Part shown: piece after piece, positions 42,154 through 62,152 of the stretch | Numbering within the stretch: position 1 is the first letter of the stretch | Layout of the letters: every line of letters starts with the position of its first letter | From: Patescibacteria group bacterium | Lineage (GTDB): Bacteria; Patescibacteriota; WWE3; UBA101185; UBA10185 | Assembly (NCBI GenBank): GCA_018825365.1 | Contig: JAHJEV010000004.1 | Coordinates: forward strand, 27,527-91,526 | DNA: 64,000 nucleotides | Direction of reading: 5' to 3' | Program-made: the position numbers and the translations under genes | Notes under the pieces: generated by a model | Seen by the model: the letters and a program-made list of their open reading frames with translations, nothing else | The model's database searches: none | Told to the model about the DNA's origin: nothing

Positions 42154-43005
<852 letters not shown>

Positions 43006-44181: not shown

Positions 44182-47100
44182 ATGAGCCTGCCTGCCCAAG
44201 AAAACGCACAAAGAAATAATGACACAAAGTATGACTTCCAAAGATTTGGAAGTTTAAAAGTTTCTCAAGCCGCAAAAATTTTAGGTATATCCCCTTCCTC
44301 ACTTAGACGCTTCGAAAAAGAAGAAAGAATTACCTCGGAAAGAGCCCCCGGAAATAACTATAGAACCTACAGATTGGATCTAGTAAACAGGCTAAAAGCC
44401 GAGCTACAAAACGATGGTACCAACAAACAGCTTCTGGTCAAGAGGAAAAAACTTAGAAAAACTCAGAAATACTCCCCAGAAAAAATAAATACAGGTCTAA
44501 TAAAAACCAAACCAGGGATAATACCTTCCCCAGCCCCAGTATTTAACATGGATATACCTTCGGCGCCATACCATGTCAAACCTTATGTACCAGTATCCCC
44601 CTCGCTAGAAAAACTAGACGAATCGATTAAGACAAAGGGTGACAAAGAGGAAAACTTGAACTTACCGGAGGTAGTTCCTTCATATGAAAAAATAGTCACA
44701 TACAAACCAGCAGTAGCCAAATTAAGTTTAGGCAGAGTTTTCGCCTTGATATCTACTCTCGTACTAGTATCCACAATCCTTATTTTCCCCGTGAACTTTT
44801 CAAAAGTTCTTTCAGATTTTAGATCTAAAGTTCAAAACGGACTTGTCAACGCTAAGAATCTGTCAAATGTTCTTAGTACTTTAAACTTTGGATCAAAAAA
44901 GCTAGCTGAAAAGAAATCAACTGCCCCAAGTGAACTTTTGGCAAATGTACTTGCCGCAAGTGCCCGAGTTTCAAATTACGTTTACAACATCAATATTCCA
45001 GTATTTTTCAAAAAACCAGCAACATTTGAAGACACCCTAACGGCAGAGCAGCTGGCAACTTTCAACGCCGCTATTACCACAACCAATGTAACTTTCAAAG
45101 GCACCGGTTTAATAAATAACCTTTTAGGTATTGATGTAGTAACAAAAACCACACTCGAAAGAGACTTGGATATTGACGGACAGATAACAAGCACAGGAAT
45201 GGGAGACACGGTAATAAGCAAGGGAATTATAACAGGACCGATGCTCAATTCAAACATAACATATTCCGGTAAATTTAATTTTTCAGGAACAATTGCACTA
45301 AAAGGAACAACAATTACATCAACAGCAGCCGAGCTTAATCAACTGGCAGGACTTTCATATGAAAGCGGCGGCATATTTTACGGAGACGGGACCGGATTTT
45401 ATCAGGATACTTCTTATCTGTTTTGGGACAGCACAAACAAAAATCTAGGTATAGGAACTAGTTCTCCCACTGCAACTCTAGAAATAATAAGCTCGGGAAC
45501 AGGTACCTCTACGTCAACTTTATGGACTAAGAATTCTACTGGAACAACAGGTTTATTTGTACAAAATAGTGGGAATGTGGGTGTCGGAACTACAGCCCCG
45601 GCCACAGCTTTGGAAATCGGTGGAAGCGGAAATCTAAGAATAGGAGGATTAACTGCTTTATCCGGTGTATATACAGATGCTGACAAAACCCTGGTCTCTA
45701 CCCCACCTACTTCAGGAACTTTAGGCTATTGGCAAAGAAACGGAACTTATGTTTCTCCAGCGACAATCACTGACAATGTAGGTATTGGTACCACCGCTCC
45801 TTCAGCACTTCTTGAAGTAAACGGTACCTCATGGCTTCGAGGTGGAACAGCACCTACTTCAGGTTTGTTCGTAAATTCAAGTGGCAACGTCGGCATCGGA
45901 ACAACAAACCCGGGAGCTAAACTGGACGTACGGGGAGGATTGAATACTGGAACCAATGGAACAGAATTTACAGTTTCTGACACTGGTATAGTTACTGCAG
46001 CCACCTCATTTCTAGCTCCAACTTTTGATACTGCTACCGGAGTGGCTATGAATATCGGAACTGCCACTCAAACTGCCCTCACCCTTGGTAGGGCGGGAGC
46101 AACCACAACCATTAACGGTTCCGGCTTAACGGTTGGGCCAACCGCTTGGACCGCAACTCCAACTATCTCCGGACTGATTACCGCTACCTCCGGCTTAACT
46201 GCCAATGGAGCTTTAACCGCTAACAGCACTTTCACGCTTGGAGATGATGGAGACCTCGGATCGATTGATACTTCTGACTGGAATATCACAACAACTGGAG
46301 CAATGACCGGAATTTCAGGAATTGCTAATGATGGTGCCTACACTCAATCAGGAACATCGGCTAACACTTTTACTGGAACCTCAACTTTTTCCAATGCCAC
46401 CTACTCCGCCTTTTTTACCGGTGGTAACGTAGGTATCGGCACGACAGAGCCAGGCAGCAAGTTGGAAGTTGCGGGAACCTTTACCGTTTCCGGCAGCAAC
46501 CTAACCACTCTCGGAGGCAATCTGACAGTTACCGGTACTACTTGGACAGCCACCCCGACAATTTCCGGTTTAGTAACCATGACCTCAGGTTTTGACAGCA
46601 ACGCCGCCTCAACCGTCTCTTCCTTAACCATAGATGCCAACACTGGAAATGCTCTAACTATTTCCGGAACCGGTTTTACCACTGACATTACCCTCCAAAA
46701 CGGGGAAACAATTGACAATGACACTGACGGCACAATCTTACTCACCGCTCCCACCACTAAAACTTCAGGCAATCTGTATGCGGGAACATCAGGGACAGGA
46801 ACAATCACCTCAGGTTTAATTAACGGTCAAACTATATCCTCCGCCGCTAATTTCACCGGCACCGGAATTTTTGCTTCAACTCTAACTGCTTCCAATGGCT
46901 TAACTTTAACTACCGGAGCTTTGAATTTGACATCAACTTCCGGCACAGTTAACCTAGCAACGACTTTTAACCAAGTGGGCGCTACAACCATCAACACTTC
47001 AGGCACTGCCAACACTACTATCGGCAATACCGCAGGCGGGACAATCACAATCGGTGCCGCCTCCGGAAGCGATCTTGCCTTAAATGACGCCCAATGGTCA

Positions 47101-50100
47101 ATTACCGGGGCCGGAGCGGCCAACTTTACTGGTTTAACTTCATCAGGAACAATTACCTTTTCCGGCTTGACCGCTTCAAGAGGAGTATTTACCGCTACCG
47201 GAGGGCAATTAGCTACTTCGGCTACTTCCCAATACCTAATTGACTCTCTTTCCGACGAAACAGGGTCGGGAGCTTTGGTCTTTAGTAACAGCCCGGCAAT
47301 TACCACCCCGACCATCACCACTTCAGCTACCGTGCCTTTATTAATTGGTGGTACAGCTGCCAACAGCACTTTGACTTTGAGATCCACTTCGGGTACGGGC
47401 ATAACCGGAGCTGACATTCTTTTCCAGACCGGTAACAACGGGGCTACTGAAGCCATGAGAATTTTGAACTCGGGCAATGTGGGTATTGGGACGACCAATC
47501 CACAGTATGCTCTTGAAGTAGGAGGAAGCGGGAATGTGAGAATCGGAGGACTTAGTGCCTCAATGGGAGTATATACCGATGCAAATAAGCAGCTAACTTC
47601 CACTCCTCCTACCTCCGGGGGTTTAGGATACTGGACAAGAAGTGGTACTACTCTTTGGCCTACCGCAAATACGGATAATCTAACCACTCTTGGCAACATT
47701 GGCATAGGCACCACCTCCCCCACCTCTTCTCTTCATCTTAATGCGTCTGCCCCCAGTGGCATTATATTTAATCTTGCCTATGGTGCATCCACAGTAATTG
47801 ACAACGATCTTACCGGCGCCAAGTTTAACCTTGATGACGGCACAGTCGTTGCAACCAACCAGAATATCACAGGCTTGGAGGTAAAGTTGCCAACCGTCAC
47901 CAACACCCATACAACAGGCACCAAAACGCTCAAAGGATTTTATGTAAACTTCGGAACCGGATCAGGCTTAAACCAAACCGGCGTCGGCGGCACCACCACC
48001 TACAATGCCCTTCACGTGGATCTTCCCGCCCTTACCCAAACGGCCGGAACGTTAAACATTAATGGTTTGTATGTGAACTCTCCGTCCAGTATCACAACCG
48101 GCGGTACGGCAAGCGGTCTTTATATAAACTCCACAGGAGTTAATGCAGGCGCGCTGTACGGGGTGAATGTAAGTAATATAACGGCAGGCGCGGGAACCGA
48201 ACGGGCGATTAACATAGGGAGTGGCTGGGACAGCGTTTTAGCAGTAAACGGTACCGTGATAATAAGCGGCTCGGGAGTAACCCAAACAGCCGGCGGCGGC
48301 ACCGGTTTTTCCACGTATACCAAAGGAGATGTCCTATACTCGGACGCGGCCAACTCGCTTGCTAAACTTGGCATTGGCACTGTCAATCAAGTTCTCTCCG
48401 TTACCGCAGGAGGAGTGCCGGGTTGGGGAACTATGGACGGTACAAGCTGTGTCAACTGTCTTATTAGCAACCCCACCGGAGATCAAATCATTGCTCCTAC
48501 CGGACAGGGTACGACAGGACTAGTTGTTCGCCAGACCTCAACCTCCTCTCCTACCGATGATATTTTTGCTGTTACCAATAGCGCCGGTGATAATAAATAT
48601 TTTTATGTTGACTACGCGGGCGTTGTCAATATCCCAAGTATCGGCTCCTCCAGCGGAGACCAGCTAACTATTGAACCAGGAACAGACAAATACGCCCTTA
48701 AACTTCTGGGCACCAATGTGGCGGCAAACAGCCTTCAGCTTATTGACAGCTACAACACTTCGGGCACCATTTTTGATCTTGACTACCCAGCGGCAAGAAC
48801 GCTTTCAGGCGCACTTGTTGGTATGGATATTGACCTTTCCACCAATCTAACAGTAACAAACCAAAGCGTAACCGCTCAAAAAATTACTTTACCCACTTTT
48901 ACCAATACAAATACCACAGGTACCAAGTCGTATTTGGGTATGCAAATTGCTCCCCCGGGAGCTGGCGGTGTTAACCAAAATGGTATTGGTGGAACAAGCG
49001 AGTACATTTTGGCGGATCTTACCATGCCTGCTCTTACCCAAACAGCAGGAACGCTTAATGCCTACGGGGTCAAAATCATAACACCTTCGTCCATCACCAC
49101 CGGCGGTACTGCTTATGGGGTTAATATAAACGCAAGCGGAGTCGGAGCAGGCACGCTTTACGGGATGAATGTAAGTAATATAGCGGCAGGCGCGGGAACC
49201 GAACGGGCGATAAACATCGGCACAGGCTGGGATTATGGTATCTACTCGGAAACCACAGGCAACTCCTACTTTGCAGGCAGTGTTGGCATCGGAACAACAA
49301 ATCCCACCGCAGCTCTTGATGTTGCTGGAGGAATAAAAGCAACTACATTTAATGGCAATATTATCTCCACAGGTACTGGAACTTTAACACTGGGGGCTTC
49401 AAAAACTTTAACTGTTAATGATTCCACTGTTTTGAATACTAATACCGTTACCTTCGGAGGAACAGAAATATTAACTTTAACCGCAGGAAAGAATGTAACC
49501 TTTGCTGATTCCTTTACCACCTCGGGATCAAATTCTCTCACACTAACAACTACCGGGTCAACCAATACAACCCTGCCAACCACAGGAACTCTTGCTACCT
49601 TAGCCGGAATAGAAACATTCAGCAGCAAAACATTTAGCGGAAATACATACTTTCCTGGATCTGGTATCTGGGATGCAGGAGGCAACATCGGCATCGGGAC
49701 GACAGCTCCGAAGAACAAGCTAGATGTATTTGGTGCTATGGCTATAGGGTCATACGCAGGTGTGAATACGGCACCGAGCAACGGGATGATAATATCTGGC
49801 AACGTCGGCATCGGGACGACGGGACCGGGGGCGACCCTGCACGTTCAAAAAGGTGCTGGTGTAACGGCGGTATCAGACAGCAACGCAGTGTTTCAACTCA
49901 CATCTGATGGTAATGCATCAAATATGTGGTTTAACATTAAGACAGGAGCCAATGGTGGAACCAATGGGACATTTGGATTTGCTGAAGCTGGGACTATTAA
50001 GGGCGGAATATTATGGGACGTGGCAAACGCCTCATTTAATTTATCTAGTGACGTAAACACTACAGCGACTTCAAGGCAAGTGATTATTAAAGCAGGCAAC

Positions 50101-53100
50101 GTCGGCATCGGGACGACGGGTCCCGTGGCCAATTTACACATTGTTGGCTCAACCTTGTTTGGCTCCTTAGCCGTGGCCGACAAGGTCACTGGCGGAAACA
50201 TCGGTACCGCCGCTGCCACCGTTGATATATATACCAGCTTCAATCTGTCCCAGGCCACCGCGGGCCAAACCATTACCCTGCCCGATCCAACTAATACCAC
50301 GGCCGGCAGATTAGTCTATCTTTCCAATACCGGTTCGGCCACCTTTACTTTTTACAACTCCACGGTTAAAGTCGGCGATACCACCGCGGCCATTTGGGAC
50401 AGTGACTCCTGGAACCTGGCCGGCGGCGGCGGTTTGGCTCAAGGCACGGTTGATAATGCTACTTTAAGATGGAACAACTCAACCACTCAGTGGGTGGAAA
50501 ATACCAGTATTCTTACCGCGTTAAATCCAACAGCCGTAGGTTCTTATGGGTTGTCAGTTGGCAATTCTGGCGCTGTTGCCGGAACCGGATATGGCATTTA
50601 CACCACAAAGACCGGGGGCTCAACTACTAATGTAGCTTTGTATGCATCGGCATCCGGTGGCGCTGCAAATTATGCTGCCATTTTTGATTCAGGAAATGTC
50701 GGCATCGGGACAACTGCTCCCACATATAAACTGGATACCCAACTGGCAAGTAATGGAATAATTGCAAGATTTTCAGCAACAGATGCAAGTTTACTTATAG
50801 GAGCAGATGCTAGTGGTGGATATATACAACCAGGAACAGTAGATAAAACTACAATATATCAATCAAACGGCACATCAGCAGTAGTAACTGTAGACGCTAA
50901 CAAAGTAGGTATAGGAACGACTGCTCCATCAACAAAATTAGATGTGAATGGCACGATTACCAGCCAGACCGGAGCTGTAAACTCCAATGTGGCTGACTCT
51001 TCAACCGCCATCGCCTTTTTACTGGCATCCAATAATACTTTATCCACCCAGGGCGCCAAACTCCTTTCTTTGAAAAACGCCTCAACGGAAAAGTTTTACA
51101 TTGACAAAGACGGCAATCTCTATACGGCCGGCACCATTCTGGCCGGCAATGGCACCGGCATACTGATGATTAACAAATCCGGCGGCACGGTCGCTAAGCG
51201 CAGTTTAGTCGTCATTGACATCACCACCAACTCCGCCTTTGCCACTACCACCACCGCCTACGCCAAATCCAGTTTTGGCGTGATTACCGGCGTCGGGCTT
51301 GGAGTAGCCTATGACGCCGATGGCGACGGCGCGTGCGACGCCGAAGATGTCTGCATGGTGGCGGTTGGCGGCGAAGTGGAAGTTCTTCTGACCAACGCGT
51401 CTACCGCCGTTAAAGGCGACTATATTTATACCTCGGCCACGGCCGGTTCGGGCGTGTCCAGCGCCAAGCAGTTTGACGGCCTTATCGGCATCGTCAGCAA
51501 CACGGCCGGCTCTGCTTCCGGCTATGGCAAAATGATTTTTAAAGTCCAGCCCCAGGTCTCCGGCTCGCAGTTTTTAACTAAAGAAGACACAGCTTTGGCT
51601 AATGGCGGTTATGTGGAGATAGTCCACAATCAGAGCACTAATGATGTGGTGACCAATGGGTGGGTGTACAACACAACCACCAGTAAATGGGAAATAGTTG
51701 GTGATAGTGGGGATGCAATTGGTGGAACAGTAACATATAAAGATGGATATACCATCCATACATTTACCAGTAGCGGAACCTTCACGCCAGTTAGTGCTGG
51801 AAATGTTGAAGTTTATGCTTGGGGTGGTGGCGCAGGTGGTGGGTATAACGCCGGTGCCGGAGGTGGTGGAGGAGCAGCTAATGGTACAGTAACAGTTGCG
51901 GCATCTTCTTATGTTGTTACTGTTGGTGGCGGTGGATTATCTAGGGCACCGGATGCTGGTCCTGGACCAGCAGTTGTTGGTGGAGGTGGTTTAGCAGGTA
52001 ATCTTGGTTATGGTGGTCAAGGCGGAGGTTTATCTGGAATTTTTATAGGATCTTCTTCTCAAGTCAATGCTCGCTTAATGGCTGGTGGGGGCGGTGGTGG
52101 TGCTTACGAAGGTGCTAATGGCGGTGCTGGAGGCGGCACTAATGGCGTTGCTGGTGGCAACGGTTTAGATGCTGGTGGTGGTGGAGGAACACAATCTGCT
52201 GGTGGCACATCTGTTTCCTCTACCGGTTCTGCGCTACAGGGAGGTTCTTCTGGTGCTCAAGGTGATGGTGGCGGTAGCGGTGGTGGAGGTGGTGGTTATT
52301 GGGGTGGAGGAGCTGGTAGTAATACCAATCCTGGTTCTGCTGGTGGTGGCGGTGCAGGATTTTATAACCCAACTTATGCTTCCTCTGTAACATTAACTGC
52401 AGGTTCTGGAACAACACCTGGTGATTCAGGTAATTCTTTAAGAGGTTCTGCTGGTAATGGAGGTGCGGCTGGTAATAATGCAGGTACAGCCGGCATTGTC
52501 ATTGTTAGATATCTGACGAATTCGTTGAGCGCTTTCAAAATCACCCAGCAGGATACCAATACGGTTCGGCTTTATAATTATTCCGGCGCGACGCAATATG
52601 TCAGGTTAAATGTTATTCCTTCCGGCGGCGGCGGTTCGCCGGGCGGCGGCGCCGGGCTCTACACCAATAACAACGCCTCCGTTGCCAACGGCTCCTACAT
52701 CGACGTGGCGCACAACCAGAACACCGCCGACCTGGTAAGCAACGGGTGGATTTACAATACAGCTACTAGCAAATGGGAACAGATTGACAAAGATAGTAGT
52801 GATGCCACTGGCGGAACAATAACATATAGCGGTGGATATACCATTCATACTTTTACAAGTAGCGGAACATTCACACCACCAAATAATGGAAATGTTGAAT
52901 ATCTTGTGGTTGGAGGAGGAGGAGGAGGTCATACGGGAGGTGGTGGGGCGGGTGGATATTTGACTGGAACAGATTCATTATCCGCAACCTCTTACAATGT
53001 TATAGTTGGAGCAACAGTGGGCGCATATACAACTGGAAACAATAGTTCATTCAATGGCAAAATAGCTTCTGGCGGAGGTCTTGGAGGAAATGTAGGTGAA

Positions 53101-56076
53101 GCAGGGGGAGATGGAGGTTCGGGTGGTGGTGCGGGTGCGGGTGGTGGTGTGTATGCACATGGTCACGCAACTGGTACTCCGAGTAGCCAAGGTCATGATG
53201 GGGGCATAAACTATAATAGCTCTCCTTATCCTGCTGGTGGTGGCGGTGGCGCAGATACAGTAGGTTCAGATGGAACGTCTAATGGAGGTGGAAATGGGGG
53301 CGCAGGACTAACATCAAGTATTAGTGGAAGTTCAGTAGGTTATGCAGGTGGGGGTGGGGGTTATAGTCAAGATACAAAACCTCCAGGAACTGCGTCCCAT
53401 GGAGGAGGAGCAGGAGTAGGGCAAACGGGCACTCCCAATGCTGGCACACCTAATACTGGCGGAGGCGGCGGCGGCGGACAGAATGGTGGTGCAGGTGGTT
53501 CCGGCATTGTCATTGTCAGATATTTAACCAATTCTTTAAGTGCTTTCAAAATCACCCAGCTCGATACCAACACGGTACGGCTCTACAACTACTCCGGTAC
53601 TACTCAAAACTTACGGCTTGATGTCATTACCGGAGGATTGGGCCGAAACGCCGGCACCGTGTCTTTGGCGCCGGCTGCCGCCGACGTTGACAGCCAGGAT
53701 AACTCCAACAGCATCTGGATCAACAAAACCGGAGCCGGGGGCTTGCTGCTCAAGCTCCAATCTGCGGCTGCGGATGTTCTCACTTTGGCCAAGAGCGGCC
53801 TGATGACCTTGGCCGGCAGTTTCGTTCCCGCTACCAACGATACCTATGATTTGGGTTCGGACGCCTTGAGATGGCAGTCTGCCTACATCGGGCCCGGGAC
53901 AGTGCACATTGGCACCTCCACCGCTGATGAGTACACTATGTCATATGACACAACTAACAACCGCTTGGGTTTCAATGTCAACGGTTCGGGCGATGCGGAA
54001 ATCGTCTTTGATTCCTCCGGCAACGTCGGCATCGGGACGACGGGACCAGAATCTAAACTACATGTTATGTTTAATAGCGCAGGTACAATCACAGGTTTTT
54101 CCGACGCATTAATTGTTGAAAACAACGCGAATGCTTATTTGAACCTCATTGGTTCAACTTCTGGAATAAAGGCGATTACTTTTGGAGACCCAACTGCCGG
54201 TGTGGTAGATGGTCAAATCACCTACAATGCCCTCGCTACTGACATGCTTGACTTTCGTGTTGCTGGTAATTCTGTAAAGATGGTGATTGACTCTTCCGGC
54301 AACGTCGGCATCGGGACGACGACGCCTGCAGCTAGAACACACATAGTCAATACTACAGCTACCGCACTAAGGTTGGATGTAAATGATGCATTTTCTTATG
54401 CGGAGTTTTATACTGGTGCAACATATCGTGGAAATATAACATATCAGGCGGCAAGTACTGCTTTGCGATTGACTGCTGGAACAGCACAGAACTTACTCTT
54501 AACTGCTGCGGATAGTAATGATAAAGGGATATTTATAAAAACAGACGGCAATGTCGGCATCGGTACAACAGCTCCGAAGAACAAGCTAGATGTATTTGGT
54601 GCTATGGCTATAGGGTCATACGCAGGTGTGAATACGGCACCGAGCAACGGGATGATAATATCTGGCAACGTCGGCATCGGGACGACGGGGCCGGGGGGCA
54701 AGTTAAGCATTTATGATACGTCAGCCGGTGCTAACGATAGGGTACAGATAGTCAGCGATCTAAGTTCGAGCGTGGACCAGTTGGTACTCCATCATTATGG
54801 GACGGCAGGAACTCAGCTTGCGTCATTTTGGAGAGGCAGGGGCACTTTCTCTTCACCAACAGCTTTATCGAATGGTGATGCAATCGGTCAATTTAATTTC
54901 GTAGGATATGACACAAGTAACACGGCTCAGACAGGGGCAGGATTCGGGGCAGTAGTAGATGCGGCTCCAGGAGCTGGAAGCGTTCCTATTGCAATAAGAT
55001 TTTTAACAGGTACCACAGGAGGTGGGACGGAACGGGTCAGAATTGATAGTACCGGCAACGTCGGCATCGGGACGACGGGGCCAGTGAGCTCGCTAGAAAT
55101 AAAAGGTCCGAACACTGTAAATACTCCGCGCTTAACGCTCAACCAACTTTATAACGCAGGAGCGTCGGCGTGGGGTATTGATTTCACTCGCACCTACGAC
55201 ACCGGTGGTGACGGACAAAACGCGGGGTACATTCGTATTGGCCGTGCCGGGGGAACCTCAAATTCGGGTATGTTTTTTGGGCTTGGTGACCAAGGTACAG
55301 TCGCAGATAGAATGACTATTCTTCCAAGCGGCAACGTCGGCATCGGGACGACAGGTCCAGGGTATACATTAACAGTTGCAGGTACTGCCTGGGTTACAAG
55401 CGGCGCCTGGTCTGGTTCGGATGTTAGATGGAAAGAAAATATTCAGCCTATAGCAGGAGCCTTGGACAAAGTACTGCAACTCTCCGGAGTTTTCTATAAC
55501 TGGAGAAAAGACGAGTTTCCAGAAAATAAATTTGATGACAAAACTCACTTGGGGTTAATTGCTCAGGATGTAGAAAAAATTGTTCCCGAACTGGTAACCA
55601 CAGGACCAGACGGCTATAAAGGTCTTGATTATAATGGATTAGCGCCTCTTTTAATTGGGGCCGTACAGGAACAGCAGGGGCAAATCTCGCTGCTGTCAGG
55701 ACAGCTGGTAAGCTTATCAAATATCGTCCGTGTTGAAGGCTCGTGCGTTACCGGTGACACATTGCTTCCCATCCGCCGCCGACGCAAAAGTCTAAGTGGT
55801 CTGGAATCCGAGGACGACAATGGGTTATTTGATTACCTGTTGATCCGTATCGATGAAATACTACCTGGCGATGAAGTCTCGTCCTTAAATGAGTTTACAG
55901 GCTCTCTAGAATGGCATAAAATAAATGCCTCGATGGATATGGATATTAAGGAAGTTTTTGAGCTTACAACCAAATCAGGAAAAGTAATCAGGACAACAGC
56001 CAAGCATCCTTACTTAACTTTGTTGGAAGATAAATTGGAAGGTAACCCTGTAGTTAGTAAAGAAGGAATAAAATAA
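44182..56076 (+). CDS. giant (3964 aa) cell-surface protein: N-terminal HTH, single TM, tail-fibre-like 'GNVGIGTTxP' repeat array, tandem Gly-rich modules, peptidase-S74 intramolecular chaperone domain, C-terminal split-intein N-fragment
   Basis: Single uninterrupted ORF. HTH 'LKVSQAAKILGISPSSLRRFEKEERI' (aa 22-50). TM 'RVFALISTLVLVSTILIFPV' (aa ~184-204). Many 'SGNVGIGTT(A/N/G)P..KL(D/E)V' repeats. S74 motif 'SDVRWKENIQPIAGALDKVLQLSGVFYNWRKDE...LIAQDVEKIVPELV'. Final 110 aa 'CVTGDTLL...VIRTTAKHPYLT...' are intein blocks A and B. Confidence 0.85.
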   Translation: MSLPAQENAQRNNDTKYDFQRFGSLKVSQAAKILGISPSSLRRFEKEERITSERAPGNNYRTYRLDLVNRLKAELQNDGTNKQLLVKRKKLRKTQKYSPEKINTGLIKTKPGIIPSPAPVFNMDIPSAPYHVKPYVPVSPSLEKLDESIKTKGDKEENLNLPEVVPSYEKIVTYKPAVAKLSLGRVFALISTLVLVSTILIFPVNFSKVLSDFRSKVQNGLVNAKNLSNVLSTLNFGSKKLAEKKSTAPSELLANVLAASARVSNYVYNINIPVFFKKPATFEDTLTAEQLATFNAAITTTNVTFKGTGLINNLLGIDVVTKTTLERDLDIDGQITSTGMGDTVISKGIITGPMLNSNITYSGKFNFSGTIALKGTTITSTAAELNQLAGLSYESGGIFYGDGTGFYQDTSYLFWDSTNKNLGIGTSSPTATLEIISSGTGTSTSTLWTKNSTGTTGLFVQNSGNVGVGTTAPATALEIGGSGNLRIGGLTALSGVYTDADKTLVSTPPTSGTLGYWQRNGTYVSPATITDNVGIGTTAPSALLEVNGTSWLRGGTAPTSGLFVNSSGNVGIGTTNPGAKLDVRGGLNTGTNGTEFTVSDTGIVTAATSFLAPTFDTATGVAMNIGTATQTALTLGRAGATTTINGSGLTVGPTAWTATPTISGLITATSGLTANGALTANSTFTLGDDGDLGSIDTSDWNITTTGAMTGISGIANDGAYTQSGTSANTFTGTSTFSNATYSAFFTGGNVGIGTTEPGSKLEVAGTFTVSGSNLTTLGGNLTVTGTTWTATPTISGLVTMTSGFDSNAASTVSSLTIDANTGNALTISGTGFTTDITLQNGETIDNDTDGTILLTAPTTKTSGNLYAGTSGTGTITSGLINGQTISSAANFTGTGIFASTLTASNGLTLTTGALNLTSTSGTVNLATTFNQVGATTINTSGTANTTIGNTAGGTITIGAASGSDLALNDAQWSITGAGAANFTGLTSSGTITFSGLTASRGVFTATGGQLATSATSQYLIDSLSDETGSGALVFSNSPAITTPTITTSATVPLLIGGTAANSTLTLRSTSGTGITGADILFQTGNNGATEAMRILNSGNVGIGTTNPQYALEVGGSGNVRIGGLSASMGVYTDANKQLTSTPPTSGGLGYWTRSGTTLWPTANTDNLTTLGNIGIGTTSPTSSLHLNASAPSGIIFNLAYGASTVIDNDLTGAKFNLDDGTVVATNQNITGLEVKLPTVTNTHTTGTKTLKGFYVNFGTGSGLNQTGVGGTTTYNALHVDLPALTQTAGTLNINGLYVNSPSSITTGGTASGLYINSTGVNAGALYGVNVSNITAGAGTERAINIGSGWDSVLAVNGTVIISGSGVTQTAGGGTGFSTYTKGDVLYSDAANSLAKLGIGTVNQVLSVTAGGVPGWGTMDGTSCVNCLISNPTGDQIIAPTGQGTTGLVVRQTSTSSPTDDIFAVTNSAGDNKYFYVDYAGVVNIPSIGSSSGDQLTIEPGTDKYALKLLGTNVAANSLQLIDSYNTSGTIFDLDYPAARTLSGALVGMDIDLSTNLTVTNQSVTAQKITLPTFTNTNTTGTKSYLGMQIAPPGAGGVNQNGIGGTSEYILADLTMPALTQTAGTLNAYGVKIITPSSITTGGTAYGVNINASGVGAGTLYGMNVSNIAAGAGTERAINIGTGWDYGIYSETTGNSYFAGSVGIGTTNPTAALDVAGGIKATTFNGNIISTGTGTLTLGASKTLTVNDSTVLNTNTVTFGGTEILTLTAGKNVTFADSFTTSGSNSLTLTTTGSTNTTLPTTGTLATLAGIETFSSKTFSGNTYFPGSGIWDAGGNIGIGTTAPKNKLDVFGAMAIGSYAGVNTAPSNGMIISGNVGIGTTGPGATLHVQKGAGVTAVSDSNAVFQLTSDGNASNMWFNIKTGANGGTNGTFGFAEAGTIKGGILWDVANASFNLSSDVNTTATSRQVIIKAGNVGIGTTGPVANLHIVGSTLFGSLAVADKVTGGNIGTAAATVDIYTSFNLSQATAGQTITLPDPTNTTAGRLVYLSNTGSATFTFYNSTVKVGDTTAAIWDSDSWNLAGGGGLAQGTVDNATLRWNNSTTQWVENTSILTALNPTAVGSYGLSVGNSGAVAGTGYGIYTTKTGGSTTNVALYASASGGAANYAAIFDSGNVGIGTTAPTYKLDTQLASNGIIARFSATDASLLIGADASGGYIQPGTVDKTTIYQSNGTSAVVTVDANKVGIGTTAPSTKLDVNGTITSQTGAVNSNVADSSTAIAFLLASNNTLSTQGAKLLSLKNASTEKFYIDKDGNLYTAGTILAGNGTGILMINKSGGTVAKRSLVVIDITTNSAFATTTTAYAKSSFGVITGVGLGVAYDADGDGACDAEDVCMVAVGGEVEVLLTNASTAVKGDYIYTSATAGSGVSSAKQFDGLIGIVSNTAGSASGYGKMIFKVQPQVSGSQFLTKEDTALANGGYVEIVHNQSTNDVVTNGWVYNTTTSKWEIVGDSGDAIGGTVTYKDGYTIHTFTSSGTFTPVSAGNVEVYAWGGGAGGGYNAGAGGGGGAANGTVTVAASSYVVTVGGGGLSRAPDAGPGPAVVGGGGLAGNLGYGGQGGGLSGIFIGSSSQVNARLMAGGGGGGAYEGANGGAGGGTNGVAGGNGLDAGGGGGTQSAGGTSVSSTGSALQGGSSGAQGDGGGSGGGGGGYWGGGAGSNTNPGSAGGGGAGFYNPTYASSVTLTAGSGTTPGDSGNSLRGSAGNGGAAGNNAGTAGIVIVRYLTNSLSAFKITQQDTNTVRLYNYSGATQYVRLNVIPSGGGGSPGGGAGLYTNNNASVANGSYIDVAHNQNTADLVSNGWIYNTATSKWEQIDKDSSDATGGTITYSGGYTIHTFTSSGTFTPPNNGNVEYLVVGGGGGGHTGGGGAGGYLTGTDSLSATSYNVIVGATVGAYTTGNNSSFNGKIASGGGLGGNVGEAGGDGGSGGGAGAGGGVYAHGHATGTPSSQGHDGGINYNSSPYPAGGGGGADTVGSDGTSNGGGNGGAGLTSSISGSSVGYAGGGGGYSQDTKPPGTASHGGGAGVGQTGTPNAGTPNTGGGGGGGQNGGAGGSGIVIVRYLTNSLSAFKITQLDTNTVRLYNYSGTTQNLRLDVITGGLGRNAGTVSLAPAAADVDSQDNSNSIWINKTGAGGLLLKLQSAAADVLTLAKSGLMTLAGSFVPATNDTYDLGSDALRWQSAYIGPGTVHIGTSTADEYTMSYDTTNNRLGFNVNGSGDAEIVFDSSGNVGIGTTGPESKLHVMFNSAGTITGFSDALIVENNANAYLNLIGSTSGIKAITFGDPTAGVVDGQITYNALATDMLDFRVAGNSVKMVIDSSGNVGIGTTTPAARTHIVNTTATALRLDVNDAFSYAEFYTGATYRGNITYQAASTALRLTAGTAQNLLLTAADSNDKGIFIKTDGNVGIGTTAPKNKLDVFGAMAIGSYAGVNTAPSNGMIISGNVGIGTTGPGGKLSIYDTSAGANDRVQIVSDLSSSVDQLVLHHYGTAGTQLASFWRGRGTFSSPTALSNGDAIGQFNFVGYDTSNTAQTGAGFGAVVDAAPGAGSVPIAIRFLTGTTGGGTERVRIDSTGNVGIGTTGPVSSLEIKGPNTVNTPRLTLNQLYNAGASAWGIDFTRTYDTGGDGQNAGYIRIGRAGGTSNSGMFFGLGDQGTVADRMTILPSGNVGIGTTGPGYTLTVAGTAWVTSGAWSGSDVRWKENIQPIAGALDKVLQLSGVFYNWRKDEFPENKFDDKTHLGLIAQDVEKIVPELVTTGPDGYKGLDYNGLAPLLIGAVQEQQGQISLLSGQLVSLSNIVRVEGSCVTGDTLLPIRRRRKSLSGLESEDDNGLFDYLLIRIDEILPGDEVSSLNEFTGSLEWHKINASMDMDIKEVFELTTKSGKVIRTTAKHPYLTLLEDKLEGNPVVSKEGIK
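49705..49824 (+). repeat. ~120-nt perfect intragenic direct repeat, copy 1 (copy 2 at 54571-54690)
   Basis: Identical stretch 'gctccgaagaacaagctagatgtatttggtgctatggctatagggtcatacgcaggtgtgaatacggcaccgagcaacgggatgataatatctggcaacgtcggcatcgggacgacggg' at both sites. Confidence 0.8.
54571..54690 (+). repeat. ~120-nt perfect intragenic direct repeat, copy 2
   Basis: See copy 1; 4.87 kb apart in the same reading frame, encoding 'APKNKLDVFGAMAIGSYAGVNTAPSNGMIISGNVGIGTTGPG'. Confidence 0.8.
55417..55743 (+). other. peptidase S74 / intramolecular chaperone auto-processing domain (sub-feature of the giant CDS)
   Basis: 'SDVRWKENI...FYNWRKDEFPENKFDDKTHLGLIAQDVEKIVPELV' matches the tail-spike/endosialidase C-terminal chaperone domain (SDxRxK Ser-Lys dyad region). 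Confidence 0.7.
55744..56073 (+). other. split-intein N-terminal fragment (Int-N; Hint blocks A and B), DnaE-split-intein-like
   Basis: Block A 'CVTGDTLL' at the extein/intein junction (…VEGS|C); block B 'GKVIRTTAKHPYLT', close to the cyanobacterial DnaE Int-N block B 'GSVIRATSDHRFLT' as recalled; ORF stops 20 aa later, as in natural Int-N. Confidence 0.75.
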
Positions 56077-56201
56077 ATGAGTAAATTTTTAAACAGTTTT
56101 TTAACTAAATATCTCACGATTACAAGAGGAAGTGCCAAAATTTCCCAAACTAGTGAGATTGGGACCTCGCCAATCCGTGAGATGGGGGAGACTAAAAATC
56201 T

Positions 56202-56780
56202 ATGAAAATTAACCAAAATATGAAAAAATTCCAAAAAACTCTGGAATTAAAAGGCAAAACGGCTGTCCTCATTGATTGGGCTAACGTTCACGGATGGGCA
56301 GAATTGGGTCACTCTGAAGTTAATCTAAAAAAGTTGTTTAAATACTTAAGAGGGTACAAAAAGATTAAAGCAATAAATCTATATTTCGGTAAGGATACTC
56401 ATCCAAAATCAAAAAAGTTTTTAGGTGAAGCGAAGAAAATAGGTTTTAAGGTAATCACAAAACCAGTTAAATATATCAAGGTGGCTGTATTCCAAAATAA
56501 ACCAATTTTCCGACGAAAGTGCGACTTTGATATGGAAATTTGTATTGATATTCACAAACATTTAAGCCAAAATTATGATAGTTTCATTTTCTTTTCTGGC
56601 GATGGGGACTTTGAGCCTCTTTATAGACTATTAATCGAAAGACATAAACAGGTTATTGTAATATATGGACAAGGCCATCTGGGAAGGGAGATTTACTCAA
56701 TAAAACAGGGGTTATATAAACTCGATATTAATAAGTTGGGGTCAGTAAAAAATGACCCCCCGGTTTCCCGGAGGGCGTGA
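56202..56780 (+). CDS. NYN-domain (LabA/YacP-like) protein
   Basis: 'KTAVLIDWANVHG' N-terminal acidic motif and 'FFSGDGDFEPL' NYN signature; 192 aa. Confidence 0.7.
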   Translation: MKINQNMKKFQKTLELKGKTAVLIDWANVHGWAELGHSEVNLKKLFKYLRGYKKIKAINLYFGKDTHPKSKKFLGEAKKIGFKVITKPVKYIKVAVFQNKPIFRRKCDFDMEICIDIHKHLSQNYDSFIFFSGDGDFEPLYRLLIERHKQVIVIYGQGHLGREIYSIKQGLYKLDINKLGSVKNDPPVSRRA

Positions 56781-56906
56781 TTAAAAGTATGTTAACAAAA
56801 CTAGCCAGAAAAGTCAAATTAGGAAAGATCGGCAAAGACCGCTTAACTCAGGAATTTATACCTGGCGATCAGCGATTCGAGCCGATTAGTAGGTAAAGGA
56901 TAACGT

Positions 56907-58232
56907 ATGTCTAAATTTTTATCAAATATTTTTAATTTAATGAAGGCCCATAAACCTGGGGTCCCCGACCTCGCTAAATCGCCTATAGGTGGTGATGTAC
57001 CAACTACACCGAACAAGCAAGACGGACATCTCACCTCCGCTCAGGGCAAGCCCATAATGGACTCTTTTGCCTGCCCTTACTGCGCAAGCAAACACTTTGT
57101 CAGAAGAGGTTTTAGACAGAAAAAAATGGAAAAAGTCCAGCTTTATCTTTGCCTGGAGTGCAACAAAACCTTTACCCAGCATATAACCCGCGGCAAACAC
57201 TATCCTTTACCGGTTGTTTTCGATGCTATCAGCACTTATAATCTTGGGTATTCTCTGGAAGAAACCTGCAGGATAATTAATAGCCGCACCGCCGGCGTTA
57301 CGTCAGCAGTTTCCGAGGCAGGTCCCGCACTTTCGGCATCGACTTTATCAAATTGGCTTAATGAAACATCAGAGCTCTGCCGATTTGAGCGCATGCGCGA
57401 ATATGCCCTGAAAAAATACTCGCCAGAAAATATGGTTGTTACCGCAACTCTCGCCCACCGACAGCTTTACCGCTACCGCTTCCATAGAGCCAAATGCGAA
57501 CTTATCATCACTGAAGATTTTAAACACCACCGCTTCGGGCCTTTGCAGGAATTTCTAGAAATGGTGCCCAGTGAGTGTCCGCACCAATATTTCCAAGAAG
57601 GCTTAAGGGCCAGTGAAGTGCCTTTGACCTTTTCCAAAACCCAAATGATCGTCAGAAGCAAGCAAAACTACGCCACTGCGCTTGCCACCTTTATCCTGCA
57701 GTCGGTCAAGGATAGAAAACTGCGCCATGACGCTATACAAAAATTTATGCTGGCCAACGACACGGTAACTGTCGCCACTGAAGTACCGGTTTACTTAACC
57801 CACGATGATTTGGAGCATTTGCAGACACAGCTAGGGTTTGAAATATATGACTCCCCCATTAAAGGAGCCCGTTCGGCCGCCTTGGAAGTGTGTACCGACC
57901 TGCCAAAATTAATCACTGGCCACATTGACATACTGCAAATAAGAAACGGCCAGATTCATATTTTGGATTTTAAACCTGACGCCGCAAAAGAACAGCCGAT
58001 TGAACAGCTGACTTTGTATGCTATGGCGCTGTCCAGACTTACCGGTTTAAGATTATTCGAGTTTAAATGCGCTTGGTTTGATGAAAAAGACTATTTTGAA
58101 TTTTATCCATTACATGTTTTACTTAAAACAAAGAAAAGTCAGAGACGCCGAAAAGTCTATACCATGGAAGGAGTTTATAAAATTAATCAGGATGAAAGAA
58201 AGGTAACAGAAATTAAACCTATACACCTATGA
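56907..58232 (+). CDS. Zn-ribbon + PD-(D/E)xK nuclease-fold protein (candidate free-standing homing endonuclease)
   Basis: N-terminal 'CPYCASKH...CLECNKTF' C4 ribbon; C-terminal 'ITGHIDILQIRNGQIHILDFKPD' (D...D/ExK-like core); locally higher GC than the genome. Confidence 0.55.
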   Translation: MSKFLSNIFNLMKAHKPGVPDLAKSPIGGDVPTTPNKQDGHLTSAQGKPIMDSFACPYCASKHFVRRGFRQKKMEKVQLYLCLECNKTFTQHITRGKHYPLPVVFDAISTYNLGYSLEETCRIINSRTAGVTSAVSEAGPALSASTLSNWLNETSELCRFERMREYALKKYSPENMVVTATLAHRQLYRYRFHRAKCELIITEDFKHHRFGPLQEFLEMVPSECPHQYFQEGLRASEVPLTFSKTQMIVRSKQNYATALATFILQSVKDRKLRHDAIQKFMLANDTVTVATEVPVYLTHDDLEHLQTQLGFEIYDSPIKGARSAALEVCTDLPKLITGHIDILQIRNGQIHILDFKPDAAKEQPIEQLTLYAMALSRLTGLRLFEFKCAWFDEKDYFEFYPLHVLLKTKKSQRRRKVYTMEGVYKINQDERKVTEIKPIHL

Positions 58233-58645
58233 CCTATCAAAAATCATACAGCCCTAAAAGACCGGTGAAAAGCTTCCAGGATTTGGAAGTGTACCAAAAG
58301 TTATTGGCTCTCTCAGTTGCTGTAGCCAAAAGAGTCAAATCCGAAAAAGTGACTGCCATTGCCTTAGATTTGCCGGTTAAGATAGCCACAGCTCACTCAT
58401 CGAGATTTGGTGATCAGACAAAGGCAATTTACGCTCTGGATGAAGTAATGCTTAATTGCAATCTGCTTGTTGTTTATTTGGAACAATACCGGGATATTGA
58501 AAATCCGTCTGCTAAAGAGGCAGAGAAGATTGAATCTGAATTTTTTGAGGAGCAGATTAAAAGTCTTTTGTCAGTCAGAATGAAAATTTTACATTTACAA
58601 AATTCGTGGAAGAAATTCGCCAAAGAATATGCCAAACAAAAATAA
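58229..58645 (+). CDS. four-helix-bundle protein (23S rRNA intervening-sequence protein family, TIGR02436-like)
   Basis: 'FQDLEVYQKLLALSVAVAKRV...' matches the four-helix-bundle/IVS protein N-terminus (FxDLxVWQKA); 138 aa; 4-nt overlap with upstream gene. Confidence 0.7.
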   Translation: MTYQKSYSPKRPVKSFQDLEVYQKLLALSVAVAKRVKSEKVTAIALDLPVKIATAHSSRFGDQTKAIYALDEVMLNCNLLVVYLEQYRDIENPSAKEAEKIESEFFEEQIKSLLSVRMKILHLQNSWKKFAKEYAKQK

Positions 58646-58883
58646 CAAGAAAAATTTAATAGACACCCACCCTGTAGGCAGGATCTTTAATATTGGCAAG
58701 GAAAAGGCCGTCTGGAAAAGAGTAACCGAGCTAAAACCCGGGGTAAAAATTGCTGTCGAAAAAGATGGAAACCTCGCTTGGGATGAAATTGTTGAAATAA
58801 AATCCGTCGGCCTCGAAAGAGTCTGGGACATTGAAGTTGAAGGCACGCATAACTTTGTCGGCAACGGTATCATCGCCCACAAT
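58629..58883 (+). other. Int-C portion (blocks F/G) of the split intein
   Basis: 'VWDIEVEGTHNFVGNGIIAHN' similar to the DnaE Int-C '[22 protein letters not shown]' as recalled; splice junction at 58883/58884. Confidence 0.75.
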
Positions 58884-60638
58884 ACTTTTCTCAACGATCT
58901 TGTTGGGATAGGAACTACAAATCCAGCAGATACAACCTTAAACTTATCAAGTACAAGCCCGTCTAGTATAAATATGCTGGATGTTGACGGAGTAATAAGA
59001 ATCAACCAATCAGTAGTCACCGACACAGTTTCAAACACCTTATACAACAACTCGGATGTATTAATGTGGAATGATAAACAAATATCAGCCGGACCTAACC
59101 TGTACTCGATAAACGGATCCGTTTCCAACGATGAGTATTTATCGCTACAACACAAACAGGGTACAACTGACATACTGGTCACAGCATGGGTAAACGACGG
59201 AACAAAATGGGTAAAGATTGCAAATCTAGGAGACCCGTCAGATACAACCGGGGATTACTACTTCACTACACCGGACAGCGATACGGTCCGTTTACACAAT
59301 AAATCCGGAAACTCACAGTCATTAAAACTAGACATATTCGTATCCGGAGCTAATGTTGCAGAGTGGTACACACTCGATAACACATTTGCTGACACTAGCA
59401 CAGCTTCAGATGTTTCAGATATCTCAGACACTTCGGATACTTCAGATGTTATAACTACCGGTACATCCCCAAGCACTGAAATTACCCTACCAGGTTCATC
59501 ACCTGATACCTCAATCACCGAGTCTACGTCCGTACCTAATACTGAAATTACTAAAATTGAATCCGGTGATGTTGTTGCACTATCTACAAATATTGACGAT
59601 TACGGAATGCCGATGATTAGAAAAACAAGCACCTATTACGACTCGAGTTTATTTGGAGTAGTTACTACAAGTGCCAGCCACGAAATGGGAATACAAAGAG
59701 ATGGAAGAAAACTTGTTGCCCTGTCAGGTAGAGTCCCTGTAAAGATAGATCCCGCTTCTTCAGATATTAAACCCGGAGACTTCATTACAGCATCATCTCT
59801 TGAGGGACATGCAACCAAAGCTGAAATGCCGGGAAGAGTCATTGGTACAGCGCTGCAGTCGTGGAATAAAAATTCCGGTGACAAAAAGGTACTGGTTTTA
59901 GTCAATCCAACATACAACTCACCTACCGCCCAAGCACTCACATCAGCTTTATCATCTGACAGCTCTACATCTGGAGATATTTCAAATGAAATGCTAACTC
60001 TAAGAGATCAGATAGTTGCCCTATCTAACAATCTTAAGGACACACTATCTTCCCTTGGGATGACATTAACTAAGGATGAGGTTTCAGAAAAAGACACGCT
60101 GGCTATTAACTCAGACATGCACATACTTGGGGATGTGACACTTACTAACCTGACCGTAACTGGCGATATTCAGGCAGGAATGGTCACAATTGACACACTT
60201 TCTAACTCAGTAGACGTGCTTGGATCTTCCTGCTATAACTCAGAAACTAATACAATCAATGACACATTATGTAATGATCAGGCTTTACATCTTCAAAAAT
60301 CTGGCTCCGGTATGATTGACATGTTCGACGGAAAGATAGTTGCCAAACCAAACGGAACATTGGTTATAGAAAACTCCATAGAAACCAAGAAACTTGTCAT
60401 CAACACATCTGATGTAGAATCCGCAGCTGCAGGAAAAACAACCATCAAAGCCGGTGACACCAGTATCACAATAGATACGAGCGCTGTAAATGACAAATCC
60501 ATAATCATGATAACTCCGGAAAGACCGGCTACTGTCGGAAGCAAATACAAGCAGGAAGGAAAGTTTGAAATAGTCTTGAAGGAGGCTCAGGCGGAGGATC
60601 TTGATATAAGCTGGATAATTGTGGATAGAAAAGATTAA
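58629..60638 (+). CDS. split-intein C-terminal fragment (Int-C, 85 aa) fused to the C-terminal extein of the tail-fibre-like surface protein (669 aa total)
   Basis: 'RVWDIEVEGTHNFVGNGIIAHN|TFLNDLVGIGTTNP...' carries intein blocks F and G ending in HN with +1 Thr; extein resumes the GIGTT repeat type of the upstream giant protein; S/T/D-rich linker; C-terminal globular region. Confidence 0.8.
   Translation: MPNKNNKKNLIDTHPVGRIFNIGKEKAVWKRVTELKPGVKIAVEKDGNLAWDEIVEIKSVGLERVWDIEVEGTHNFVGNGIIAHNTFLNDLVGIGTTNPADTTLNLSSTSPSSINMLDVDGVIRINQSVVTDTVSNTLYNNSDVLMWNDKQISAGPNLYSINGSVSNDEYLSLQHKQGTTDILVTAWVNDGTKWVKIANLGDPSDTTGDYYFTTPDSDTVRLHNKSGNSQSLKLDIFVSGANVAEWYTLDNTFADTSTASDVSDISDTSDTSDVITTGTSPSTEITLPGSSPDTSITESTSVPNTEITKIESGDVVALSTNIDDYGMPMIRKTSTYYDSSLFGVVTTSASHEMGIQRDGRKLVALSGRVPVKIDPASSDIKPGDFITASSLEGHATKAEMPGRVIGTALQSWNKNSGDKKVLVLVNPTYNSPTAQALTSALSSDSSTSGDISNEMLTLRDQIVALSNNLKDTLSSLGMTLTKDEVSEKDTLAINSDMHILGDVTLTNLTVTGDIQAGMVTIDTLSNSVDVLGSSCYNSETNTINDTLCNDQALHLQKSGSGMIDMFDGKIVAKPNGTLVIENSIETKKLVINTSDVESAAAGKTTIKAGDTSITIDTSAVNDKSIIMITPERPATVGSKYKQEGKFEIVLKEAQAEDLDISWIIVDRKD
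60486..60638 (+). repeat. 3'-terminal ~150 nt of the Int-C/extein gene (master copy of a thrice-repeated segment)
   Basis: Sequence 'taaatgacaaatccataatcatgataactccggaaagaccggctactgtcggaagcaaatacaagcaggaaggaaagtttgaaata...ctggataattgtggatagaaaagattaa' recurs at 62003-62152 and partly at 63579-63600. Confidence 0.8.
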
Positions 60639-60736
60639 ACTACTCAAAAAGCCACTGAATAGAAAACTTGGTTTTTGGTCTACTTTACTACTCATCACTT
60701 ATATTTAAGGTTGAGATAGTAAAATCTCCCGCAGAC

Positions 60737-61930: not shown

Positions 61931-62002
61931 ATTTTGATAACTGCAGTTTACAATATATGTATCTATTTTGTCAAGTGTATGTAATCATAATCAGGATCTA
62001 TA

Positions 62003-62152
62003 AATGACACGTCCATAATCATGATAACTCCGGAAAGACCGGCTACTGTCGGAAGCAAATACAAGCAGGAAGGAAAGTTTGAAATAATCTTAAAAGAGGC
62101 TCAAACGGAGGATCTTGATATAAGCTGGATAATTGTGGATAGAAAAGATTAG
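62003..62152 (+). repeat. orphan near-identical copy of the last ~50 codons of the 58629..60638 gene
   Basis: Few substitutions relative to 60486-60638; in-frame translation preserved ('...MITPERPATVGSKYKQEGKFEIILKEAQTEDLDISWIIVDRKD*'). Confidence 0.8.

Follow-up and report, generated by a model that had tools for sequence, protein, structure and literature searches.

Genes for the tail fibres and receptor-binding proteins of phages, such as gp37 and gp38 of the T-even type, are mosaics that evolve by the exchange of modules. Atypical blocks are likewise seen in genes that have become mosaic by interspecies recombination, for example the penicillin-binding-protein genes of Neisseria and Streptococcus, and Dassa et al. 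reportedly described, in 2009, genes fractured by split inteins between whose halves a free-standing nuclease gene is located. The Patescibacteria (candidate phyla radiation, CPR) are bacteria with tiny genomes, many of which are attached to other cells, and their partner recognition is largely unknown. In Bdellovibrio bacteriovorus, the mosaic adhesive trimer (MAT) fibres are cellular, surface-exposed, and phage-like chimeric proteins, whose S74 subfamily carries a catalytic SDxxxK motif; a compositional mosaic is not mentioned for these fibres, the term “GC content” having 0 occurrences in the article (Caulton et al. 2024, PMC10769870). Here we analyze a giant open reading frame (ORF) within a stretch of 64,000 nucleotides (nt) from a Patescibacteria group bacterium (assembly GCA_018825365.1, contig JAHJEV010000004.1, positions 27,527 to 91,526; in the following “the window”, to which all positions refer). 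Its product resembles the fibres mentioned above, and we consider it probable that the gene is a recombinational patchwork of domain-sized cassettes written in three codon dialects.

The content of guanine plus cytosine (GC) was determined for each codon position (GC1, GC2, GC3) in 60-codon windows, and the third positions were segmented by a hidden Markov model (HMM) with the three states LOW, MID, and HIGH. As a reference served 375 sixty-codon windows from the other ORFs of the window, in which GC3 has a mean of 0.355, a standard deviation (sd) of 0.074, and a maximum of 0.58. Within the giant ORF, GC3 ranges from 0.08 to 0.75 between 60-codon windows, a heterogeneity beyond that in every other gene of the window, and this spread is far above the expectation (z = 17.7) from a shuffle in which synonymous codons are permuted within the gene while the protein remains unchanged. 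A preliminary description of this DNA had flagged four GC-rich patches with G/C-ending codons in the gene, here named A to D (Table 1): The HIGH segments of the HMM match the flagged intervals almost to the base, each patch deviates significantly from the shuffle expectation (z = 4.7–8.0 for GC3 as well as for total GC), and the codons are indeed G/C-ending, mainly C-ending. Because the patches lie 4.7–8 sd above the synonymous-shuffle expectation, neither chance nor amino acid composition explains them. The mosaic comprises three states and reaches outside the flagged interval, with one further HIGH segment upstream.

The contrast of the patches resides in codon choice. The whole giant ORF is GC-elevated (45–52% by region versus 34–42% in the rest of the window; overall GC 0.48, GC1 0.49, GC2 0.54, GC3 0.41), which is mainly due to codon positions 1 and 2 (0.49/0.54 versus about 0.46/0.33 in neighbouring genes), as Gly, Thr, Ala, and Ser abound in the protein. 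The patches have a total GC of 0.53–0.57, with 200-nt peaks of 0.585–0.605, and GC1 and GC2 of the HIGH segments (0.48–0.50 and 0.47–0.56) are not above those of the MID segments. As a statement on total GC, the earlier wording that the patches far surpass the remainder of the gene is hence overstated. The same applies to the AT-rich usage noted between them, which is evident at third positions (GC3 0.08, 0.17, 0.20) but not in total GC, since the two Gly-rich inter-patch segments reach 50–57% with GC1 and GC2 of 0.6–0.7.

Three dialects can be distinguished: one that is host-like (GC3 about 0.37–0.40), one that prefers C-ending codons (0.57–0.73), and one that is strongly AT-ending (0.08–0.20). 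HIGH segments favour GGC (0.63), ACC (0.58), GCC (0.58), and TCC (0.52), and their codon usage correlates negatively with that of the host genes (r = −0.34) and positively with that of relatives of about 50–60% GC (r = 0.49–0.69). LOW and MID segments resemble the host genes (r = 0.68 and 0.78, respectively). The T- and A-ending codons of the LOW segments are no effect of glycine: As non-Gly codons are as AT-ending as Gly codons (0.16–0.20; 0.16 for the non-Gly codons of the first Gly-rich domain), the LOW state is regional. How abruptly one dialect gives way to another is seen where the LOW segment in front of patch B ends, at which point ...aaattagatgtg is directly followed by aatggcacgattacc.

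These GC3 switches fall on protein-domain borders. A β-domain with the pattern ...NGSYIDVAHNQ..NGWxYNTxTSKWE / FKITQxDxNTVRLYNYSG..LRLDVI (the slash marks the insertion site) is intact in the downstream C-extein ORF (59079–59348, GC3 0.44), whereas the giant gene contains two tandem copies of it, in both of which a Gly_rich_2 domain interrupts the sequence after SKWE. The β-domain halves are HIGH (0.50–0.75) and the inserts LOW (0.17–0.20); in L010, a giant gene from Roizmanbacteria, a different insert of 302 amino acids (aa) with GC3 0.31 occupies the equivalent site. Both LOW segments start at or just before the TSKWE sites (51682 and 52756 versus 51679–51699 and 52765–52785), and patch C runs from the second half of β-domain copy 1 (FKITQQDTNTVRLYNYSG...) through a linker into the first half of copy 2 (...NGWIYNTATSKWE). 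The second Gly-rich domain was assigned to Gly_rich_2 by PF21722 (about 52855–53523, E = 7e-16, 59.4 bits versus a cut-off of 24.3, profile positions 1–225 of 226). The first, scanned alone against Pfam, gave no match; it is a paralogue of the second, given that phrog_2295 matches both modules and their DNA repeats are 75–77% identical. The alternation between 51.6 and 53.7 kb may accordingly be read as a low-GC3 Gly_rich_2 domain that was inserted into a loop of a high-GC3 β-domain, the resulting unit being present twice in tandem.

The clearest case of an exchanged module is patch B. Over its whole length it aligns with positions 11056–11793 of contig JBDRMC010000013.1 from a Patescibacteria metagenome-assembled genome (MAG; L021), with 88.5% nt and 91% aa identity and an identity at four-fold degenerate sites of 0.81 (100 of 123 sites). 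In the pairwise DNA alignment, identity is random before about 50940, rises to 0.8–0.98 until about 51700, and is near-random thereafter; outside patch B the two proteins are unalignable, and their helix-turn-helix (HTH) regions are unrelated. The identity breakpoints coincide with GC3 borders in both genes, the right-hand one with the LOW start at 51682, and in L021, whose flanking genes have a GC3 of about 0.40, the cassette is likewise HIGH (0.67) between MID blocks. Judged by this alignment, patch B is a recombination cassette shared with L021.

A second exchange is apparent at strain level. From 55732 to the end of the window, the sister strain L001 (GCA_043824185.1) matches it with 98.7% identity; upstream of the intein fragment in which the giant ORF ends (see below), the strain has a different fibre end, which reaches only 64% aa identity in the S74 region and does not match at the nucleotide level. 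The switch point is the first intein residue, and identity amounts to 0.8–0.93 within the intein and to 0.98–1.0 thereafter. The comparison identifies a strain-level replacement of the fibre end. As a separate observation, the other public assemblies (L020, L001, and L002) all break in or beside the giant gene, one of them inside a 156-nt repeat. Since every other public assembly breaks here, the gene is a systematic assembly-breaking and strain-variable spot.

The LOW/MID/HIGH mosaic recurs in relatives from other studies, namely L010/L009/L025 (three records of one gene, 99–100% identical to each other), L021, L011, and L007; it is seen in relatives whose hosts have about 37–41% GC. A further record, L266 (LCMI01000015.1, “Collierbacteria GWA2_46”), is the same giant gene as L010/L025 (LBPR01000003.1, “Roizmanbacteria GWC2_34_23”), with 99.8–100% nt identity over 12 kb and five indels of about 106–133 nt that break the ORF in L266; because the same gene under two candidate phyla is likely to reflect mis-binning or assembly error, these were not counted as independent.

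Whether the C-ending dialect is foreign can be judged from the homologues of the patches. Patch B homologues have a GC3 above their host in L021 (0.67 versus 0.40), L010/L009/L025 (0.63 versus 0.36), and L007/L024 (0.49 versus 0.36), are host-like in L006 (0.35 versus 0.37) and L008 (0.38 versus 0.40), and reach 0.59 in a 52%-GC contig from Falkowbacteria. The homologue of patch A has 0.50 in L006 (host 0.37) and 0.59 in L022, a contig of 55% GC (host 0.55), and that of patch D has 0.60 in L010 (host 0.37) and 0.63 in L011 (host 0.49). Taken together, the GC3 of the patch A, B, and D homologues is above that of low-GC hosts (0.49–0.67 versus 0.36–0.41), whereas the homologues in the higher-GC hosts L022, L026, and L265 match their host. 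In L265, a relative of 50% GC from the same MAG series as L021, the fibre gene is almost uniformly HIGH (0.62), the flanking genes have a GC3 of 0.52–0.62, and ordinary flanking genes as well as the fibre gene use GGC, ACC, and GCC like the patches. Some higher-GC relatives thus use this dialect natively, but to the host of the window it is foreign, which fits import from such a pool, and a higher-GC source is plausible on the basis of codon usage, with L265, L026, and L022 as a plausible candidate donor class rather than as the donors. In such a scenario, the four patches would be cassettes of the GC3-rich dialect that enter and leave the gene at domain borders through homologous or illegitimate recombination. 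Because the GC3-rich dialect is native to related Patescibacteria of about 50–55% GC, a shared fibre-module pool that encompasses these organisms is most likely the source of the cassettes, or the medium in which they circulate.

A short element of the gene follows a composition of its own. A 23-mer encoding GNVGIGTT is present in seven exact copies, of which the first is listed in Table 1 and the other six start at 50095, 54019, 54298, 54664, 55054, and 55330. The DNA coding for this motif is conserved at synonymous sites, the exact string also being found in L001 and L010, and its GC3 exceeds that of its flanks both here (0.75 versus 0.36) and in L010 (0.96 versus 0.28, positions 5762–14801). 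Four of the 12 GC3 borders in the giant gene lie at copies of the motif (P about 0.03). Beyond Patescibacteria, the exact 23-mer occurs in more than 120 IMG/VR contigs, with 172 instances and a median flank GC3 of 0.35, and an unbiased degenerate scan of viral loci yielded a motif GC3 of 0.38 versus 0.26 in the flanks (237 instances, 115 loci, per-locus Wilcoxon p about 1e-4). This pattern is compatible with a recombination anchor or with concerted evolution. It is conceivable, albeit rather unlikely, that 23–26 nt of this DNA (GGCAACGTCGGCATCGGGACGACG) are kept identical as a universal recombination joint for fibre cassettes, which would permit exchange within the gene, between Patescibacteria that differ greatly in GC, and with phages. 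In that case, fibre modules would form a “plug-and-play” pool across lineages, to which the giant gene would belong as one node, and its dialect mosaic would directly record the traffic. The patch B cassette, the one case that is proven, argues against such a joint, for it is without the motif at its L021 junctions.

Several observations weigh against a patchwork of imported cassettes. No donor and no near-identical higher-GC copy of the patches was found in the collections searched; the higher-GC relatives L265, L026, and L022 are only 52–66% identical (aa) over the patches, and the nearest copy of patch B, in L021, resides in another low-GC host in which it is equally atypical. The best relatives of patches A, C, and D reach only 68–77% aa identity, and the protein search with patch D returned only four distant fragments. 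In comparisons of the window with most homologues, four-fold sites are saturated although both sides keep the HIGH state, which requires either repeated imports or a maintaining force. GC3 islands at the GNVGIGTT motif are seen even in LOW context and also widely in viral contigs, so that nucleotide-level forces beyond donor composition must act in these genes. Finally, no independent assembly that covers 49.7–55.7 kb was found in the collections. Given that there is no close higher-GC relative, that four-fold sites are saturated, and that L021 is in a low-GC host, we can only infer the direction and the source of the transfer, as is also the case for the biological role. With regard to the preliminary description, its proposal of domain cassettes acquired by recombination gains support from patch B and from the replacement in L001. 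The proposed higher-GC donor (phage or other bacterium) agrees with the dialect of relatives of about 50–60% GC, but neither a donor nor a close phage relative came to light. The suggested swapping of fibre tips does not describe the gene accurately, because the modules of the four patches are internal, 1700–2000 residues before the S74 end, and the alternation is partly one of nested Gly_rich_2 domains.

The most serious alternative to a recombinational patchwork is a force that acts in situ, either selection for C-ending, accuracy-optimal codons in highly conserved structural modules or GC-biased gene conversion (gBGC) in those with most recombination, with no higher-GC donor involved. It would account for the fact that no other modules are as conserved and as widely shared as the HIGH patches (41 invariant columns in patch B), and that the HIGH/LOW border SKWE / IVRY..FKITQ is found in both tandem copies, in L010, and in L011 despite saturated synonymous divergence; the GC3 enrichment of GNVGIGTT codons over their flanks in the 115 viral loci also speaks for it. 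However, the host-like patch B homologues of L006 and L008 imply that the HIGH state is not intrinsic to the module, and Gly-rich domains are not universally GC3-low. Moreover, the highly expressed genes of the host, those for ATP synthase and ribosomal proteins, have a GC3 of 0.30–0.38 and no preference for C-ending codons, a shift from 0.35 to 0.70 far exceeds what is generally known of accuracy or gBGC effects, and the C-over-G asymmetry of the HIGH segments (0.71) is like the native usage of higher-GC relatives (0.83–0.87 in L265). We therefore consider an in situ force unlikely as the cause of the patches, though it deserves more weight than any of the explanations that follow. An assembly chimera, in which co-occurring populations that differ in GC would have contributed pieces of fibre genes joined at shared repeats, is a natural concern for a gene that carries a 156-nt repeat at 96% identity plus seven identical 23-mers, next to or in which three other assemblies break (Logan at about 49731, L001 1.1 kb before the intein, L002 at 58246), and for which an independent copy of 49.7–55.7 kb is lacking in the collections. 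Yet one frame of 3964 codons is intact across 12 compositional borders, most of which are without any repeat, and no contig or protein at least 95% identical to any patch, as expected of a second parent, is present in the collections, the best being 88% identical (nt). A like mosaic with like domain borders is found in independently assembled relatives, one gene having been recovered three times at 99–100%. In addition, an independent Logan contig (L020) is 100% identical to the window over 27019–48434 before it terminates within copy 1 of the repeat, so that the upstream HIGH segment lies in a stretch confirmed by an identical assembly. A chimeric assembly is hence unlikely, and markedly more so than a force in situ.

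Two further explanations have next to no probability. A pure amino acid effect, by which the patches would be GC-rich merely through a protein rich in Gly, Ala, and Pro, could draw on the elevation of GC1 and GC2 throughout the gene and on the string quoted in the preliminary description, which we located at 52622–52665 within patch C and which encodes PSGGGGSPGGGAGLYT; but the segments that are really rich in Gly are those with low GC3, and the protein-preserving shuffle refutes it. Just as improbable are overlapping genes in antisense or alternative frames that would force G or C at the third positions of the sense frame: Short ORFs of 73–135 aa do exist in or beside some patches, but they are expected anyway in GC-richer DNA, none of them spans any patch, and none of at least 70 aa overlaps patch B (738 nt). 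Two other candidates were tried and rejected. Local GC homeostasis, in which GC3 offsets GC1 and GC2, is consistent with a spread in total GC equal to the shuffle expectation, but the correlation between GC12 and GC3 is lost once Gly-rich windows are left out (r = +0.13) and is absent in L010. Avoidance of G-runs as the cause of the LOW state is incompatible with the equally AT-ending non-Gly codons and with Gly-rich stretches elsewhere, which are not systematically GC3-low.

The architecture of the encoded protein gives the patchwork its setting. A MerR-type HTH domain is joined via a single putative transmembrane (TM) helix to a fibre of 3700 aa that is predicted to be extracellular. After the TM helix come about 3500 aa of phage-tail-fibre-like modules, then the S74 chaperone domain, and finally the N-terminal fragment of an intein. 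The tail-fibre families phrog_9942 and phrog_33119 of PHROG match the protein, and the S74 stretch is also matched by PDB entries 6f45 and 7dc3 and contains the predicted S74 cleavage site, SDxxxK, in the form SDVRWK (aa 3746–3751, 55417–55434). Sequence matches to Bdellovibrio MAT fibres in the PDB were obtained for 8ol4 (E = 8.3e-8, aa 3530–3646), for 8ond, that is Bd2133 (E = 9.6e-7, aa 1949–2058, in the region of patch A), and for 8oml and 8on4. The HTH N-terminus recurs in many family members (matches to PF12728, PF00376, and PF13411), and its combination with an S74 end is common to many homologues, which are giant proteins of Patescibacteria (Collierbacteria, Levybacteria, Falkowbacteria, Roizmanbacteria, and “Patescibacteria group bacterium” by their source names). 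The atp operon on one side and rplJ on the other constitute a cellular context without nearby phage genes. Exact-protein look-ups for the giant ORF and for the ORF upstream of it retrieved no matching record, and a viral scan with the giant protein gave no close relatives, only matches of 50–58% over 50–80 aa. From these features we infer that the product is a membrane-anchored, phage-tail-fibre-like surface fibre of Patescibacteria, whose role is most likely the contact with host or partner cells. As a side observation, a 272-aa membrane protein encoded upstream (42154–42972, − strand) contains one short motif like patch B, with a pairwise E of 0.009 that is too weak for homology.

Table 1. 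Position of the features of the giant ORF and its surroundings in the window.
Feature	Coordinates	Strand	Remarks
Giant ORF	44182..56076	+	3964 aa, single uninterrupted frame
MerR-type HTH	44257..44397	+	aa 26–72, PF13411 E = 5.8e-6; predicted cytoplasmic
Hydrophobic stretch VFALISTLVLVSTILIFPV	44737..44793	+	aa 186–204; putative membrane anchor, read from the translation
HIGH segment beyond the flagged range	47812..48357	+	GC3 0.57
156-nt intragenic repeat, copy 1	49676..49831	+	96% identical to copy 2
Exact 23-mer GGCAACGTCGGCATCGGGACGAC (GNVGIGTT)	49798..49820	+	one of seven exact copies
Patch A, HIGH	50095..50430	+	GC3 0.67; first base is the start of a GNVGIGTT 23-mer
LOW segment	50746..50943	+	GC3 0.08; GIGTT motifs at both edges
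Patch B, HIGH	50944..51681	+	GC3 0.64; holds the invariant EKFYIDKDGNLY motif
LOW Gly-rich domain, copy 1	51682..52512	+	GC3 0.17, 35% Gly, GC1 0.63, GC2 0.70; follows ...TSKWE
Patch C, HIGH	52513..52755	+	GC3 0.73
LOW Gly-rich domain, copy 2	52756..53418	+	GC3 0.20
Patch D, HIGH	53551..54042	+	GC3 0.70; from just past the Gly_rich_2 end (IVIVRY...FKITQL) to the GNVGIGTT 23-mer at 54019
156-nt intragenic repeat, copy 2	54542..54697	+	96% identical to copy 1
Peptidase_S74 intramolecular-chaperone domain	55417..55599	+	aa 3746–3806, PF13884 E = 7.9e-17, 61.7 bits versus cut-off 22
N-terminal intein fragment	55744..56073	+	begins at Cys3855 (S/CVTGDTLLP, slash at the junction); giant ORF stops inside the intein
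Genes between the intein halves	56202..58232	+	NYN-domain protein (56202–56780); zinc-ribbon + PD-(D/E)XK nuclease-like protein (56907–58232)
C-extein ORF	58629..60638	+	C-terminal intein block to 58883 (...IIAHN); fibre-like 584-aa C-extein from Thr at 58884

Downstream, the stretch from 55744 to 60638 has the arrangement of a fractured intein, for which splicing is predicted. The C-terminal block is recognized by TIGR01443 (35.3 bits versus 15.6) up to the junction ...IIAHN/T, after which the C-extein opens with the GIGTT motif; the N-terminal block scores below the thresholds of PF14890 (22.3 versus 35.8) and TIGR01445 (17.6 versus 24.5). As in the fractured genes with split inteins, the putative N-intein ends one ORF, the C-intein starts a downstream ORF, and genes of nuclease type (NYN, PD-(D/E)XK) lie between them. 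Unlike in those, the extein is that of a surface-fibre gene rather than of a gene of DNA metabolism, the N-block match is sub-threshold, and splicing is a prediction only. The 3′ end of the C-extein ORF is at the same time the first copy of a 164-nt direct repeat (60484–60647 and 61998–62161, 93% identical) that flanks the first of two paralogous AAA_14/DUF4143 ATPase genes (60737–61930); this layout suggests that the ATPase gene was duplicated or inserted here.

The giant gene reveals no new principle, since both mosaicism in fibre or adhesin genes and the traces that recombination leaves in base composition are well known. The novelty lies in where the mosaic occurs, namely in a family of giant HTH-TM-fibre-S74 genes of Patescibacteria that is uncharacterised and combines three dialects, nested insertions, and a fractured intein at the strain breakpoint; our literature search on giant fibre genes of CPR bacteria or on intragenic GC3 mosaics yielded nothing specific. 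An exchange of domain cassettes between lineages of differing base composition is the pattern expected of a fast-evolving device for host recognition, of which the receptor-binding proteins of phages and the MAT fibres of Bdellovibrio are examples. In practical terms, segmentation by GC3 delimits domain and cassette borders in such genes without the need for structural data, and it also flags breaks in metagenome assemblies and strain-variable regions.

Compared with the mosaic fibre genes of phages, the giant gene shares the fibre-like modules with PHROG tail-fibre matches, the C-terminal S74 chaperone, the exchange of cassettes with sharp breakpoints, and short Gly-containing motifs between variable segments. 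In contrast to them, it belongs to a cellular genome, with the atp operon and rplJ as neighbours, encodes 3964 aa with an N-terminal HTH and TM anchor, and has no close viral relatives in the scan described above. To the S74 MATs of Bdellovibrio it is linked by an S74 domain with SDxxxK motif, by fibre modules that resemble the β-helical ones of solved MAT structures, and, as far as its sequence suggests, by a likely function in the recognition of other cells. MATs begin with a signal peptide and a conserved β-rich domain of about 130 aa, whereas the giant protein begins with HTH and TM segment, and neither the PDB nor the Pfam searches produced a match to the MAT N-domain in it; furthermore, it is several times longer (for MATs, K1031 of Bd2133 is the highest residue number cited) and has the arrangement of a fractured intein. 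With the mosaic penicillin-binding-protein genes it has in common sharp-bordered blocks of foreign codon usage in an intact ORF, one of them shared with a distant genome. In those genes, the blocks represent homologous replacement from sister species, while here they are whole domains and nested insertions that would stem from a diverse pool.

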